Shown: positions 25,611 to 32,944, counted from the first letter of the stretch. The stretch is DNA of 64,000 nucleotides from Nitrospiraceae bacterium (GCA_036004925.1 DASYRC010000063.1:29970-93969); one strand, 5' to 3'. Numbers and translations: made by a program. Notes: generated from the sequence alone by a model not told the origin.

Positions 25611-28337
<2,727 letters not shown>

Positions 28338-28506
28338 GGTACTGTCGTTCAGAACGAACGCCGATGACTCCGAAAGTATTTTGCGCAGTATACAGCATCT
28401 TTTCCATGAATCCTATAATAAGCAGAGGCCTGGCGCTAGTAGCCGACTTGACAGGCCTCGGCGGTGTCCAGTAGCATTCTTCCAATTCACACTGGGTCGC
28501 CTTCTG

Positions 28507-28812
28507 ATGAACCGCATCGTCCTCAAATTCGCGTCGATCCTCCTGGTGCTCTGCATCCTTTCCGTCGGCGGATTGGCGCAGGCGCAGTTGGTCGAGCATG
28601 CCGGGCACCATGCCCATCATCAGGCTGCCACGCATGGCACCGTGCTCTGCTCCTGGATGTGTGCCGCCGGGGCGGTTCTCGATACTGCTGTGGTCACGTT
28701 TCAGGCCGAACTCAGTCCTATTGCTCTCGTCACATTCCCCAATCCTGCGCAGCCCTCGATCGAGCTGTGCCGGACCTCTTCCAGCCGCGCCCCTCCGTCT
28801 TTCTCTCTATAG
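28507..28812 (+). CDS. Small secreted/anchored protein with His-rich plus CxxxC motif, unknown family (paralog 1)
   Basis: Internal ATG of track ORF 28252..28812. 101 aa: MNRIVLKFASILLVLCILSVGGLAQA then QLVEHAGHHAHHQAATHGTVLCSWMCAAG...SSRAPPSFSL. Shares a conserved block with ORF 30636..30935. Confidence 0.6.
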   Translation: MNRIVLKFASILLVLCILSVGGLAQAQLVEHAGHHAHHQAATHGTVLCSWMCAAGAVLDTAVVTFQAELSPIALVTFPNPAQPSIELCRTSSSRAPPSFSL

Positions 28813-28928
28813 TCTCCACTGCCCATCGGCTCGCAGCAGGGCCGCATTCCGTCTCTCACGCGATCCGCTGAGTGGGTTGTAGGACAGGCGGATGGGGCCA
28901 ATTCTTATAGAGAGAAAGGACCAGCATC

Positions 28929-30056
28929 ATGATCGGAGGGAAACGGTTCATACTCGGATTCATTCTCGGCCTTCCAATAGTCTTCTTCTCGTGGCCCGGC
29001 GCCCAGATTGCGCAGGCATCGTGCGGATCCGTCACCTGTTTTGTCGTGATCGGGTCGGCGCAGCAAGTCTCGCCGGCGGGTCTGCTAACCGTAAACACCT
29101 TTTATACCTATACGCCTCAAGGGACGTTGCTGAGTGGCACGAACGGGGTTATTCCCGCGGTCGATCTCGACAATCGACAGCTGATTCTTGGCCATCACCA
29201 GGAGATCCGAACAATTAGTCAAATGTATACGCTGGATTTGAACTACGGCGTCACCGATCAGTTCGGGATCGAAGTCGCGATCCCCTATAAGCGGATCAAG
29301 CATCAGCACATAGATGGATTGGGAGAAGTCAATGGTGGTGCCGGTGATCTCACACGGTTCTCAGATAACGGCATCGGCGACATCTTCATTAACGCGAAGT
29401 ACAACATGTTGCCCACGCTGAGCAGTATGGTTGTAACGGGTTTCGGCGTGTATCTTCCCACGGGTGATCATAATCAGACAACTGCGGGTGTCGAGAACGC
29501 TGAGACGATGGAACCGACAGCCCAGCTTGGACGCGGACAACTCGGTCTTCAAGGATCGATCTATCAAACCTATGAAATCATTCCTCATCGGTTGAACCAA
29601 TTCGCCTCTGCCAGTTACCGGCACACGTTCCGCAATAACTTTGGCTATCAATTCGGAGATCAATTCGATTTGGGATTCGGCGCGAATCTCGTCACGGTTC
29701 CCTGGCTTGTATTGGCCAATCAGTTCAACTACCGCTACATGGTTCACGATTCTTTTAGCGGGTCGCTGGCTCGATCACAGATTCCTAGCGATCCAGGATT
29801 CCCCGGCGAGGCAATTGTGCTCGATCCAAACATCACGAACCGAGCGGTTCCAACAACCGGTTCTTCGTTCCTTGCGTATACACCTGGTTTCCAAATCAGT
29901 CTCGGTGAACTCTTCAAGACCTCTATGACTGAAAATGCGTCGGTATATTTCTATTCCCAGATCCCTGTCGCCCGTGATTTCAATGGGAACCTGGCTCAAG
30001 GTGTCAGTTATGTATTCGGTATCACGAAGTTGTTCCAAGTCCTGAAACCGTCGTAA
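28929..30056 (+). CDS. Outer-membrane beta-barrel protein (transporter/MetA-pathway-like OMP family)
   Basis: 375 aa. Signal peptide ending AQIAQA, then SCGSVTCFVV. Alternating beta-strand pattern and NGIGDIFINAKYN, a motif I associate with the PF13557-type OMP family. Assigned from memory, not from a search. Confidence 0.6.
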   Translation: MIGGKRFILGFILGLPIVFFSWPGAQIAQASCGSVTCFVVIGSAQQVSPAGLLTVNTFYTYTPQGTLLSGTNGVIPAVDLDNRQLILGHHQEIRTISQMYTLDLNYGVTDQFGIEVAIPYKRIKHQHIDGLGEVNGGAGDLTRFSDNGIGDIFINAKYNMLPTLSSMVVTGFGVYLPTGDHNQTTAGVENAETMEPTAQLGRGQLGLQGSIYQTYEIIPHRLNQFASASYRHTFRNNFGYQFGDQFDLGFGANLVTVPWLVLANQFNYRYMVHDSFSGSLARSQIPSDPGFPGEAIVLDPNITNRAVPTTGSSFLAYTPGFQISLGELFKTSMTENASVYFYSQIPVARDFNGNLAQGVSYVFGITKLFQVLKPS

Positions 30057-30087
30057 GCGCAGTACTCCTTGTCATGAGGAAATTGCC

Positions 30088-30609
30088 ATGAAACATTTAC
30101 ATTTTCTGATGGTCGGTATTCTTGTCGCTTCCTTCTGGTTCTTGCCGTCCGATGTCTGGAGCATGGGGGCACGCGTTCCAGCGGTCGGGATGCAAGCGGA
30201 AGATTTTCGCCTGACCGATCTGGAGGGCAAGCAACAGAGCCTCAGCCAATATCGCGGCAAGATCGTGCTCGTGAACTTCTGGGCCACCTGGTGCAAGCCC
30301 TGCACGACCGAAATGCCGGCCATGCAAAAGATTTATGACAAGTTGCGTGACAAGGGCTTCGTGGTCCTCGCCGTCAACGAATTGGAGGACGACGCCAAAG
30401 TGCGCGAGCACATCAAGCAGTACGGCCATACATTCCCGGTCCTGATGGATCGCGACAACAAGGTGGCGAATCAGTTCGGGGTGTTCGGATTGCCGGTCAG
30501 CGTGTTTATCGATGAGAAAGGCGTCGTCCAGGAGTACATCAAGGGTGGACTGCTCACCGAGCAGAAAATCGATGAAACCGTCGCGCGGATTCAGAAACAG
30601 GGCCGGTAA
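30088..30609 (+). CDS. TlpA/ResA-like periplasmic thiol:disulfide oxidoreductase
   Basis: 173 aa. N-terminal anchor, then thioredoxin-fold active site NFWATWCKPC. Confidence 0.8.
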   Translation: MKHLHFLMVGILVASFWFLPSDVWSMGARVPAVGMQAEDFRLTDLEGKQQSLSQYRGKIVLVNFWATWCKPCTTEMPAMQKIYDKLRDKGFVVLAVNELEDDAKVREHIKQYGHTFPVLMDRDNKVANQFGVFGLPVSVFIDEKGVVQEYIKGGLLTEQKIDETVARIQKQGR

Positions 30610-30635
30610 AACCAGCGGCTCTTCGATAAAGGCCT

Positions 30636-30935
30636 ATGAACTGTAAGATTCGACAATTTGCAGTCGGAGGGTTAGCGCTCTGGCTTGTGGCGCTCAGCGG
30701 GATTGTGTACCCGCAGCTAACCGCTCACATGGCGCAACATGCGCATCACAATGCGGCGACTCATGCCACCGCACTCTGTTCATGGTTCTGCACCGCGGCA
30801 GACGCCGTCGAAGGCACAGTGGTCGATGTCGCACCCGTCCGATACTCGACTGCTCTTGAACAAGCGTCTCCTGTTACCCAACTCCATTTCTCCTATGGAT
30901 CTCAGCCTCCTTCGCGCGCGCCGCCGCTCCTCTAA
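30636..30935 (+). CDS. Small secreted/anchored protein with His-rich plus CxxxC motif, unknown family (paralog 2)
   Basis: 99 aa: hydrophobic N-terminus, then QLTAHMAQHAHHNAATHATALCSWFCTAA...PPSRAPPLL. Aligns with 28507..28812 over the H/C block and the SRAPP tail. Confidence 0.6.
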   Translation: MNCKIRQFAVGGLALWLVALSGIVYPQLTAHMAQHAHHNAATHATALCSWFCTAADAVEGTVVDVAPVRYSTALEQASPVTQLHFSYGSQPPSRAPPLL

Positions 30936-31320
30936 TCTCCCCATCCCTATATGTGTGGCGTCATGGTCTATTATCCTGGTGCCACCGCAGCTGGCAACCA
31001 AGCGGCAGCGTCACCCACATCGGGCGCTGCTACAGCATCATCGTAATTGCCAGAACGGCTCGACGATCACGGCATACCGGAATAGTAGAGCGCTCGTCGT
31101 ATCTGTTGCCGTCTGAGTCGAAGGGGGCAGAATACCCTGCCCCCTTCATGCATAACAAAGACCATTTCGACATTGAGAGGACCATGGATAAAGAACTCTT
31201 GCGCGTGAGGAAAGCCGCAGACTTCTTGTCGGTGACAGCGCTCGCTGCAGGCTGGAATTGTACGGCGCGAGTGGATTGTGGTAAGCAGAGGCTGGCGACC
31301 ATTCAACAGGAGGGGAGGCT

Positions 31321-31623
31321 ATGAAAACATTCATCAAGCTCGGAGTTCTGATCGGGTTTTTGTGTGCAATCACGACACCGGCCTTTTCGGCCGATGAGAA
31401 CGTCATGATCATGCTCGGCGGCAAGTACTGCGATGCTTATTTGGGTAATGTCCAAGATGCGCTGACGAAAGTGGCTGGCGTGAAGGCGGTCGATTTCAAG
31501 AGTATGAAGGGCCATGCGATTGTGACGATCGAATCCGGCAAGGTGAAGCCAGAGCAACTCGCCACGGCAGTCAACGGCGTGAAAGGCGAGAGCTGGTATT
31601 GCACAGGCGAGGTCATGAAGTAA
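31321..31623 (+). CDS. Periplasmic HMA-fold-like protein with degenerate metal-binding loop
   Basis: 100 aa. Signal peptide ...TTPAFSA. VMIMLGGKYCDAYLGNVQDALTKVAGVKAVDF...AIVTIE...LATAVNGV follows the beta-alpha-beta-beta-alpha-beta heavy-metal-associated pattern, but GMTCxxC is replaced by GGKYCDAY. Preceded by GGAGG. Confidence 0.55.
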   Translation: MKTFIKLGVLIGFLCAITTPAFSADENVMIMLGGKYCDAYLGNVQDALTKVAGVKAVDFKSMKGHAIVTIESGKVKPEQLATAVNGVKGESWYCTGEVMK

Positions 31624-31702
31624 CGGAAAGTGTTTCTGGCAAGATGCTGAAACAGTCCGTCAGTGCCACAGCCTGATAGGGATAACATTGGATTCGCTCA
31701 AC

Positions 31703-31956
31703 CCCGCATTACTCATGAGCGCTTCTGCTGCAATGGCCGATCCGCTGCTGCGACGAGCCTTTGGCCAGCGGGCTCGCCCCTCGGACCCTTACCCGACTGT
31801 TGGGGACTGGCGCCCTTCATTTTGGCGCCTGTCCCCGTCTGATGAGTAGCGGGACAGGCACCGCCGCAGACGTCGGAGCCAGTCCCCTGAGCTCCGCGCG
31901 CCGGTCTCGCGCCGCGGCTCAGCGATTTCGCGACGAACCGTCACGAACAGTGCGGG
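31703..31956 (+). repeat. MITE-like repeat (family 3), copy 1, degenerate termini, with an internal insertion
   Basis: Begins CCCGCATTACTCATGAGCGCTTCTGCTGCAATGGCCGATCCGCTGCTGCGACGAGCC. Ends GCGATTTCGCGACGAACCGTCACGAACAGTGCGGG. Collinear with copy 2 at 32746-32932. Its last 38 nt overlap the 3' end of the tesA-like ORF. Confidence 0.8.
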
Positions 31957-32701
31957 CTAGCAGTGGCTCAAGCGTTGGGAAGATTCTCTCGACAATTAGG
32001 CGGTAGCCTTCTCCGGTCGGATGAATGCCATCTGCCTGGTTGAGTGAGGACGAACCGGCCACGCCATCGAGAAAAAACGGAATCCGCGTGAGATGATATT
32101 GCTTCGCTAAGGCCTGGAAGAGCGCCTCAAACCCCGTGGTATAGTCCTGTCCATAATTCGGGGGGAGTTTCATCCCCGCTAACACGACGGTGACCGAAGC
32201 CTGTTGGAGTTGTTGAATGATCTGTTCCAGGTTGGCTTTCGTCTCGTGCAGGCTGAGGCCGCGGAGCCCATCGTTGGCACCGAGTTCCAGAATAACGATT
32301 GCCGGCATGCTGTTCAGGACCCAGGAGACCCTCCGGATTCCTCCGGCTGTCGTATCACCGCTGACTCCCGCGTTCACGACTCGATAGGTATAGCCTGCTG
32401 CGTCCAGCGTCCTCTGCAGATGCGCGGGATACGATTGATCCGGCGGCACACCTAAGCCGGCCGTCAAGCTGTTGCCGAAGGCGACGATGCGGGGGCGTTC
32501 GGCTGAGACGTGCCCCTTCGGTTGGTCCGGCTCCGTTGTCACATTGGTTCCCAGAGGTGGTCCCGTGCCCTCGCGCGGGGGGCTCGACAATTGTGGTGGA
32601 GAAGCAGGCGCACTCCCCCGGTCATAACCACAGAGGAGGATGAAGGAGAGGCAGAGGCAGAAAAATAGTTTTGTGAGAAGCCATGAGCAGCGCATCGTCA
32701 T
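31919..32701 (-). CDS. tesA: SGNH/GDSL hydrolase, TesA-like (arylesterase / acyl-CoA thioesterase I / lysophospholipase L1)
   Basis: SGNH blocks IVAFGNSLTAG, ELGANDGLRG and DGIHP. Divergent from ybbA-ybbP, as in E. coli tesA. The track start at 32752 lies inside the family-3 repeat terminus. A start at 32701 or 32695 (MTMRCSWLLTKLFFCLCL signal-like) is more plausible. Confidence 0.8.
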   Translation of the reverse strand: MTMRCSWLLTKLFFCLCLSFILLCGYDRGSAPASPPQLSSPPREGTGPPLGTNVTTEPDQPKGHVSAERPRIVAFGNSLTAGLGVPPDQSYPAHLQRTLDAAGYTYRVVNAGVSGDTTAGGIRRVSWVLNSMPAIVILELGANDGLRGLSLHETKANLEQIIQQLQQASVTVVLAGMKLPPNYGQDYTTGFEALFQALAKQYHLTRIPFFLDGVAGSSSLNQADGIHPTGEGYRLIVERIFPTLEPLLARTVRDGSSRNR

Positions 32702-32745
32702 CCAGTATAATATACCCGTCACCTGGACGATACTGTCGGAGCTGG

Positions 32746-32932
32746 CCCGCATTATTCATGAGCGCTTCTGTTACAATCGCGGACTCGCTGCTGCGACGAG
32801 CCTTCGGCGGGCAGGCTCGTCGCTCGCTCCCTCGACGTACTGTTCAAGTACGCCTCGGGGCCTCGCGGCTCCGCATGCCGTCTCGCAATGCGACTGCGCG
32901 ATTTCGCGACGAACCGTCATGAATAATGCGGG
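32746..32932 (+). repeat. MITE-like repeat (family 3), copy 2, with perfect 16-bp terminal inverted repeats
   Basis: CCCGCATTATTCATGA at 32746-32761 and TCATGAATAATGCGGG at 32917-32932. Internal perfect 11-bp hairpin GCGACGAGCCT...AGGCTCGTCGC. Fills the tesA / ybbA divergent intergenic region. Confidence 0.85.
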
Positions 32933-32944
32933 CTAACGGACAAC

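Follow-up and report, generated by a model that had tools for sequence, protein, structure and literature searches.

Small Nitrospira proteins with a His/Cys motif and a C-terminal R-A-P-P as candidate metal-sensing leader peptides of an envelope locus

Two small exported proteins, CruR and CutF, are the closest described counterparts of the genes considered here. CruR (Bp2923) of Bordetella pertussis, which belongs to PF11162 (DUF2946), is the product of an upstream open reading frame (ORF) through which copper regulates a TonB-dependent transporter; it has an export signal, a CXXC motif and RAPP three residues from the stop codon, and the spacing between its motifs is conserved to 1-2 residues, with altered spacing abolishing regulation (PMC9426467). 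The DUF2946-like CutF, from the cutFOG operon of Rhodobacter capsulatus, has a signal peptide, a CxxxC motif and a Pro-rich C terminus, functions in cis alone and could not be detected as a protein in vivo (PMC9973294), and the ribosome stalled on it melts a stem that shields the cutO Shine-Dalgarno (SD) sequence (PMC9973294; bioRxiv 10.1101/2025.02.05.636593). The CutF study describes 5,334 CutF-like proteins in 29 clusters, with Cys, His or mixed motifs and in many cases a position upstream of TonB-like genes (PMC9973294; bioRxiv 10.1101/2025.02.05.636593); the text of the CutF paper makes no mention of Nitrospira. Here we analyze a stretch of 64,000 nucleotides from a Nitrospiraceae metagenome-assembled genome (the window, whose positions are used throughout), in which two small ORFs flank genes for an outer membrane protein (OMP) and a TlpA-like redoxin. 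Near-identical proteins and loci bear Nitrospira names, by which the source is judged to be a Nitrospira. The family to which these ORFs belong is most likely an undescribed Nitrospira branch of the CruR/CutF-type regulators, and we consider it probable that the small ORFs are cis-acting leader peptides that stall their own ribosome at R-A-P-P, with an envelope metal signal switching on the OMP and thioredoxin genes. We propose this because of an invariant arrest motif, its fixed distance of 41 residues from a His/Cys motif, the upstream position of the ORFs and a leader tail able to sequester the ribosome-binding site of the OMP gene.

RAPP is a characterized ribosome-arrest core, for which cryo-electron microscopy shows the block of peptide-bond formation (PMC10951233). 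Among arrest cores the strongest two are RAPP and RGPP, which are resistant to EF-P; they are avoided in proteomes, arrest in many sequence contexts and are enriched at the C termini of small secreted proteins encoded 5' of TonB-receptor, copper and thioredoxin/DsbA genes (PMC12992588). In the stalled state the two Pro codons occupy the P and A sites (PMC12992588; PMC10951233). ApdA and ApdP carry the same R-A-P-P core near the C terminus of a small exported protein, again stalling with Pro-Pro held in these two sites (PMC10951233, PMC7897499), and SecM is a related arrest peptide with RAGP. These three proteins regulate secDF or secA and sense translocation force, and, unlike the Nitrospira family described below, they have no conserved metal-ligand motif whose distance to the stall site is fixed.

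An original prediction, made from the window sequence, had described five ORFs in this region, and all five are present where it placed them and with the features it gave (Table 1). The shared block Q-L-x2-H-x3-H-x2-H-x4-H-x4-C-S-W-x-C, the hydrophobic N terminus and the S-R-A-P-P tail are seen in both small ORFs; between them lie the beta-barrel OMP with SCGSVTC and the TlpA-type redoxin with WATWCKPC, and downstream is the HMA-like ORF in which GMTCxxC is replaced by GGKYCDAY. The small ORF 1 protein contains QLVEHAGHHAHHQAATHGTVLCSWMCAAG and ends in SSSRAPPSFSL, while that of small ORF 2 contains QLTAHMAQHAHHNAATHATALCSWFCTAA and ends in PSRAPPLL; the two are paralogues with 39% identity (BLASTP, E 2e-9). 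Homologues form 711 clusters at 90% identity for small ORF 1 and 242 for small ORF 2, and 43-47% of the codon differences between orthologues are synonymous, against around 25% expected for random changes. Because of these hundreds of conserved homologues and the synonymous codon bias, both small ORFs are, judged by their sequences, real genes beyond chance. Stop-proximal R[AG]PP occurs just three times in the six frames of the window, and two of these occurrences are small ORFs 1 and 2.

To define the family, we built a profile from the two paralogue groups and ran it against 1.84 billion representative proteins, obtaining 205 clusters at 50% identity, nearly all of around 100 amino acids. 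When 109 divergent members are aligned (mean column identity 27%), H31, C48, C52, R94, P96 and P97 are invariant, and H35, H38, H43 and W50 are at least 90% conserved; the His/Cys positions singled out by the original prediction are thus conserved throughout the family. Its C-terminal motif is RGPP in 74, RAPP in 57, RSPP in 5 and RDPP in 1 of 137 representatives, always 1-8 residues from the stop codon (4 residues in small ORF 1, 2 in small ORF 2). The spacer from C-x-W-x-C to the Arg is variable in sequence and exactly 41 residues long in 132 of the 137 representatives, and it is 41 or 42 residues in all 201 family ORFs of the loci described below. The S-R-A-P-P tail, which had been taken as an incidental shared feature, is instead an invariant R-[AG]-P-P motif of the ribosome-arrest type set 41 residues from the Cys pair. 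An AlphaFold2 model of small ORF 1 built with the family alignment has one helix at residues 3-35 and another at 46-60, over the Cys motif (pTM, the predicted template-modelling score, 0.37), and no secondary structure in residues 61-101, so that as modelled the protein is without a globular C-terminal domain. Positive charge followed by a hydrophobic stretch of ~18 residues (hydropathy), with A-Q-A/Q in the N-terminal region of small ORF 1, would fit a signal peptide or other export signal. Neither small protein has a significant match in Pfam, NCBIfam or PDB sequence searches, and the family profile has none in the PDB.

The likeness to DUF2946, which the original prediction saw in logic only, extends to the sequence. 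Because 16 of the 109 family members match PF11162 co-linearly, all below threshold, the family is likely a distant, currently unmodelled relative of DUF2946 rather than a demonstrated Pfam member. Residues 15-95 of the best-matching protein, P0367, align to model positions 37-117 of 117; a search seeded with P0367 found four close relatives only, none of them annotated as PF11162.

Comparison with CutF is direct, as the filters used in the CutF paper (<150 amino acids, PP in the last 15 residues, a same-strand gene within 1000 nt downstream and metal-homeostasis neighbours) all retain the two small ORFs: these have 101 and 99 amino acids, a putative signal peptide, PP 4 and 2 residues from the end and gaps of 116 nt and 385 nt, and the family's neighbours are TonB, TBDR (TonB-dependent receptor), HMA-like and redoxin genes. 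As in CutF, a small and here putatively exported protein with C-x-x-x-C and a Pro-rich C-terminal stalling motif is encoded directly 5' of its target, small ORF 1 having C-S-W-M-C, R-A-P-P and a predicted SD-shielding helix. The target of CutF is a multicopper oxidase, whereas here it would be a PF13557 OMP together with a TlpA-like redoxin; the Nitrospira sensor adds four conserved His to the Cys pair; the local intergenic stem-loop of CutF is replaced by a predicted helix built from the last codons of the leader across ~110 nt; and there are several leaders per Nitrospira locus. With CruR the family shares a predicted export signal, the Cys motif, RAPP near the stop codon and a strict motif-to-RAPP spacing. 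CruR heads a TonB-dependent transporter operon, and the third paralogue of the Nitrospira relatives directly heads a TonB-dependent receptor (TBDR). The arrest of CruR has been demonstrated (PMC9426467; PMC12992588), whereas we infer it here; CruR has CXXC and a 45-residue spacing where the Nitrospira family has C-x-W-x-C plus four His and a 41-residue spacing; and CruR acts via Rho-dependent termination, while a rut-like composition is absent from the Nitrospira sequences. The Nitrospira family thus carries, with a predicted export signal, the sequence features by which CruR/CutF-type proteins are recognized, and what is notable about it is the His4 plus C-x-W-x-C motif, the exact 41-residue ruler, the helix formed from the terminal codons of the leader and the presence of up to five leaders per locus.

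The potential for pairing between the leader tail and the OMP start region is evident from the fold of 28783-28950, which has a minimum free energy (MFE) of -75.1 kcal/mol (z = -3.7) and was matched in stability by 0 of 200 shuffles. In this structure 28798-28812 (UCUUUCUCUCUAUAG) forms 15 consecutive pairs with 28905-28919, where the OMP gene has its SD region; codons 2-4 of that gene (28934-28940) are paired with those for Pro-Pro (28791-28797), and its AUG falls in an internal loop of the helix. The tail/start-region duplex of the window has an energy of -28 kcal/mol. When the tail is masked, the MFE is -49.3 instead of -75.1 kcal/mol and refolding leaves part of the SD stretch unpaired; a ribosome with its P site at 28792-28794 would cover ~15 nt downstream, i.e. 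nearly the whole 5' strand of the helix. Across 50 orthologous sequences the mean duplex energy is -17.8 kcal/mol, whereas segments farther 5' in the same ORF reach -11.4 and shuffled tails -11.9, and in a wider set (n=61) it is -16.8 compared with -11.9 kcal/mol, the p-values of such comparisons overstating the case for pairing because related sequences are not independent. RNAalifold recovers the helix unguided in 50 loci, with 96.7% of cells paired.

A similar pairing can be drawn for small ORF 2 with the SD sequence of the HMA-like gene. Its partner varies with the fold window, being either the tail codons 30922-30931 or 30937-30946 just past the stop, and the tail pairing is seen also in a second Nitrospira locus (L034). 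Spanning 350-385 nt, found in two loci and with a partner that shifts with the fold, this pairing is weak evidence. Whole-region folds of ORF 2-TonB, ORF 3-TBDR and ORF 4-HMA-like are no more stable than shuffles, and an Rfam scan of 28000-32000 found no riboswitch or other known RNA. A Rho/rut relay was considered for the leaders and set aside, C/G being just marginally above background (C exceeds G in 49% of the 80-nt stretches that follow the stops and in 43% of background windows).

Upstream of small ORF 1, the -35 element TTGACA of a sigma-70-type promoter is invariant and its -10 element (T..A.T) conserved in 21 aligned Nitrospira loci. No known metal-regulator box was recognized by eye in the promoter region, and a near-consensus promoter without such a box fits control after transcription initiation. 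A second conserved block is found at ~28383-28420 in the secA-small ORF 1 intergenic region, with the sequence GCAGTATACAGCATCTTTTC.ATGAATCCTATAAT. Most Nitrospira loci conserve this block, in which a palindrome, GTATAC, and an exact TATAAT are found, and its role may be that of an operator, of a further promoter or of the promoter of secA.

To place the window among its relatives we assembled 83 Nitrospira loci, 79 from a genome scan and 4 by look-up; the scan used Nitrospira-specific patterns and so is uninformative on other phyla, and start-codon calls by the naive ORF rule are unreliable. A motif scan of the window and these loci finds 201 family ORFs, up to five per locus, and for nearly all of them there is a gene downstream that shares their strand and encodes an OMP in 87 cases, a TBDR in 26, TonB in 24, HTH_17 in 10, a redoxin in 10 and an HMA-like protein in 6. 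Directly 5' of the family ORF is a TlpA-like reductase gene in 78 of 190 cases. The full locus reads small1 - OMP - redoxin1 - small2 - TonB - 117-aa Plug-like - BNR propeller - redoxin2 - small3 - TBDR - HTH_17 - ExbB - small4 - HMA-like - HMA-like - SmbP-like, and its modules are shuffled or lost between genomes, with a small ORF remaining at the head of the rest. Four members at ~30% identity, from other metagenomes, likewise head redoxin, BNR-redoxin-TonB-TBDR or HTH_17-MetA-OMP genes. What the window has is a shortened form of the locus, one shared with L034 and L057. The module genes co-occur in related Nitrospira loci, and the idea of an envelope metal module gains from what these loci add, namely TonB with ExbB and a TBDR, another TlpA-like redoxin, two proteins of HMA-like type and one resembling SmbP.

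Small ORF 2 heads a TonB-BNR-redoxin module or a second OMP gene in the related loci. Its start lies 26 nt 3' of the redoxin stop codon in the window and overlaps the redoxin gene by 4 nt in L003 (L003:10001-10004), and this gap or overlap suggests that it is translationally coupled to the redoxin as an internal leader on the same transcript. The divergent neighbour of the candidate arrest-peptide locus is secA, both in the window and in at least 67 of the related loci examined. This adjacency is striking in that ribosomes arrested at RAPP usually need a pull exerted by Sec to be released.

In the mechanism that we propose, the operon would be transcribed from the conserved sigma-70-type promoter and each small ORF translated, its N-terminal hydrophobic helix sending the nascent chain to the Sec translocon. 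The ribosome would pause with the Pro-Pro codons of R-A-P-P in the P and A sites, and the 41-residue spacer would then span the exit tunnel and translocon and place the His4/C-x-W-x-C motif at or just past the periplasmic mouth. Metal binding at this motif may alter the duration of the stall, via force on the nascent chain or via its folding; alternatively the signal may be whether the two Cys are oxidized or reduced, a state that the adjacent TlpA-like reductase possibly controls. On small ORF 1 the stalled ribosome would mask the codons that pair with the SD/start region of the OMP gene, opening translation of the OMP and probably also of the redoxin, and the helix would re-form on release of the stall. 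Small ORF 2 would be an internal leader of the same type and, its cargo having been deleted, may act in the window on the HMA-like gene. As to the direction of the response, we favour by analogy with CruR a stalling that is relieved by metal, with the genes ON when metal is scarce, because the locus of the relatives carries TonB-dependent uptake genes. Of all this, the motifs, their fixed spacing, the order of the genes and the potential for pairing can be read from the sequence, while arrest, export topology, ligand and sign of the response are inferred.

Copper, the ligand suggested by the original prediction, is a guess, and the leading one, since the Cys pair, neighbours of HMA-like and SmbP-like type and both precedents are all in keeping with it. 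Given the four His and the generic receptor of the relatives, which matches only generic TBDR models (PqqU-like, far below the cut-off), Zn, Ni and Co are also possible ligands.

Several points weigh against the proposal that the small ORFs are metal-sensing leaders. Arrest is deduced from the motif and its context. The helix is nearly invariant, just one pair being changed on both sides, and because of this the support from covariation is weak; its conservation could also partly reflect constraint on the peptide. The tail codons have synonymous sites of low entropy, yet these are not clearly different from some others, which makes them suggestive but not decisive. Where a small ORF precedes a TBDR, second OMP or TonB gene, tail/start pairing is no better than in controls, and the first 80 nt after the stops lack a rut-like bias of C over G (C/G 1.05, background 0.97). 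The cargo that small ORF 2 usually has is missing from the window, where a hairpin and the remnant of a gene come after the ORF. As regards kinship with CruR, neither small protein of the window matches PF11162 at E <= 1, and the best match in the family, that of P0367, reaches 20.8 bits (E 6.7e-4), below the gathering score of 23.7 bits. No copper-receptor model was matched by the receptor of the relatives. Finally, the products of the small ORFs may mature into stable proteins that have their own function, for instance in binding metal or as substrates of TlpA.

This last point leads to the best of the alternatives, in which the small ORFs encode stable membrane-anchored or periplasmic metal-binding proteins, chaperones or buffers, that have the OMP, TlpA-like reductase and HMA-like protein as partners in acquiring or delivering a thiophilic metal, R-A-P-P being a structural or interaction motif. 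The strong conservation of the four His and two Cys, which on a helix would give metal-binding faces with i/i+4/i+7 and i/i+4 spacing, would suit such a protein, yet the 41 residues that follow are variable in sequence, fixed in length and without a predicted fold, and R-[AG]-P-P is a motif that ordinary proteins strongly avoid and that arrests in many contexts (PMC12992588). The frequent position of a TlpA-like reductase gene directly upstream recalls the action of TlpA on ScoI and CoxB, and further metal binders (HMA-like and SmbP-like) are encoded in the related loci; on the other hand the family ORFs nearly always head other genes, and CutF, their closest studied relative, is undetectable in vivo and acts in cis only (PMC9973294). 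We regard this alternative as unlikely in its pure form, a dual role as leader and protein being possible. What stands of the metal-handling module of the original prediction is the envelope and metal-related setting, while the part of the small proteins as metal carriers is disfavoured relative to that of leader peptides.

Far less probable is a role of the small ORFs in monitoring Sec, as substrates like SecM, ApdA and ApdP that would report the activity of the translocon and not metal. The combination of RAPP with an N-terminal export signal is that of ApdA and ApdP (PMC7897499), and the locus adjoins secA; however, secA is divergent and on the opposite strand and could not be controlled in cis by translation of the small ORFs, the genes downstream encode an OMP, redoxin, TonB and receptor rather than sec or yidC products, and an invariant motif of four His and two Cys at a fixed distance from the stall site would go unexplained. 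Least probable of all is that the products are precursors of secreted ribosomal metal-binding peptides (chalkophore/methanobactin-like) taken up via the neighbouring TBDR. Small Cys/His-rich ORFs do lie beside TonB, TBDR and ExbB genes in related loci, but no locus has MbnB/MbnC-type or other enzymes for ribosomally synthesized and post-translationally modified peptides or an exporter, the N terminus is a Sec-type hydrophobic helix and not a leader peptide, the receptor is absent from the window itself, and the RAPP motif and fixed spacer are unexplained.

Extending the leader-peptide proposal to the locus as a whole, we suggest tentatively that the secA-adjacent locus might be a multi-channel sensor array, in which up to five arrest leaders with varied His/Cys sensors each gate a different envelope module. 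These modules would be OMP-redoxin, TonB-propeller-redoxin, the TBDR and the HMA-like proteins; the paired TlpA-like reductases would govern whether the Cys pairs are oxidized or reduced, and arrest would integrate the identity or threshold of the metal with periplasmic redox. Such a layout has not been described for CruR or CutF and, if real, would make metal acquisition in nitrite oxidizers and comammox organisms directly testable.

Nitrospira are the main nitrite oxidizers, and some are complete ammonia oxidizers; they depend on metalloenzymes, and their sensing and acquisition of trace metals are largely obscure. If the small ORFs are leaders as proposed, the secA-adjacent locus would be under nascent-chain sensing rather than under classical transcription factors, and the CruR/CutF principle would reach another phylum with a new His4/Cys2 sensor motif. 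The 41-residue ruler and the leader-tail/SD helix would offer a compact and testable model in which a periplasmic signal passes via translocon and ribosome to an mRNA switch, and hundreds of 'hypothetical proteins' would be re-annotated as regulatory leaders instead of structural metal-binding proteins.

The remaining three proteins of the window were also compared with known families. The OMP matches PF13557 (Phenol_MetA_deg) with 27.7 bits and E 3.4e-6 (cut-off 22), and the motif AQA/SCG[SA]V[TS]C is invariant in 20 of 20 orthologues examined. Its predicted mature N terminus, S-C-G-[SA]-V-[TS]-C-F-V-V, is likewise invariant in these orthologues, and the exposed C-x4-C is a candidate substrate of the adjacent TlpA-like reductase or a candidate metal site. 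The redoxin, with its WATWCKPC, is above threshold for the Pfam families AhpC-TSA (112 bits) and Redoxin (100 bits); its best NCBIfam models, ResA at 149.8 bits (equivalog cut-off 170) and TlpA at 87.1 (cut-off 230), are both below cut-off. TlpA reduces ScoI and CoxB. Like TlpA of Bradyrhizobium and ResA of Bacillus, the redoxin is an exported thioredoxin-fold reductase with a W-C-x-x-C site, but unlike theirs its gene is without a Sco, CoxB or cytochrome-maturation context; candidate substrates are the N-terminal C-x4-C of the OMP and the Cys pair of the leader. The HMA-like ORF scores 17.8 bits with Pfam HMA (PF00403), below the cut-off of 24.8, and has a sub-threshold match to MerP (E 6e-7). 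It aligns to the metal-binding domains of ATP7B with GMTCxxC changed to GGKYCDAY, the first Cys being kept and the second replaced by Tyr, and the same loop is retained in the orthologue of L003. We therefore describe it as an HMA domain by fold likeness only.

Table 1. Features of the candidate leader-peptide locus and its surroundings (window positions)
Feature	Position	Strand	Description
secA	25611-28337	-	opposite strand to small ORF 1
Sigma-70-type promoter-like site	28448..28477	+	TTGACA-18-TAGCAT; consensus scan, ~30 nt 5' of small ORF 1
Small ORF 1	28507..28812	+	candidate metal-sensing arrest/leader peptide heading the OMP-redoxin module
Sensor-motif codons, small ORF 1	28597..28662	+	H31-x3-H35-x2-H38-x4-H43-x4-C48-x-W50-x-C52; conservation in 109 members
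R-A-P-P codons, small ORF 1	28786..28797	+	CGC GCC CCU CCG; predicted stall site, Pro-Pro codons in P and A sites
Predicted helix, 5' strand	28791..28812	+	Pro-Pro codons, last four codons (S-F-S-L) and stop of small ORF 1
Predicted helix, 3' strand	28905..28940	+	OMP Shine-Dalgarno region UUAUAGAGAGAAAGG, AUG in internal loop, codons 2-4 CGGAGGG
OMP gene	28929..30056	+	PF13557 (MetA-pathway/transporter-type) beta-barrel; invariant mature N-terminal C-x4-C (SCGSVTC)
Redoxin gene	30088..30609	+	exported TlpA/ResA/DsbE-like thiol:disulfide oxidoreductase, W-C-K-P-C
Small ORF 2	30636..30935	+	candidate paralogous arrest/leader peptide
Sensor-motif codons, small ORF 2	30726-30791	+	
R-A-P-P codons, small ORF 2	30915-30926	+	
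Spacer after small ORF 2	30936..31320	+	385 nt; blastn mosaic against L009, L024 and L034, left by deletions
Shine-Dalgarno of HMA-like gene	31309..31317	+	GGAGGGGAG; predicted pairing near end of small ORF 2
HMA-like gene	31321..31623	+	exported HMA/MerP-like protein, degenerate metal loop G-G-K-Y-C-D-A-Y

Within the gap that follows small ORF 2 there is a strong GC hairpin at 31118-31150. A 46-codon ORF at 31184-31324 starts like the HTH_17/excisionase-type gene of the relatives and has no Pfam match; it is probably a truncated HTH_17-like remnant.

Some genes of the relatives are absent from the window. They encode a free-standing protein of 117 aa that matches the Plug domain of TonB receptors below threshold, a BNR-repeat beta-propeller, a second HMA-like protein with G-R-M-C-E-Y-H, and a 97-aa protein with a sub-threshold match (E 1.8e-4) to the Nitrosomonas small metal-binding family PF16785; the coordinates of these genes are L001:11375-11728, L001:11737-13023, L003:17792-18154 and L003:18591-18884.

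Two pairs of direct repeats (31703-31959 and 32746-32935) flank a GDSL-lipase gene at 31919..32752 on the minus strand, with 80% identity over 99 nt and 84% over 56 nt, and may represent a small repeated intergenic element. The segment 54001-56000 has a GC content of 0.47, compared with ~0.57 in the rest of the window, and may have been horizontally acquired.

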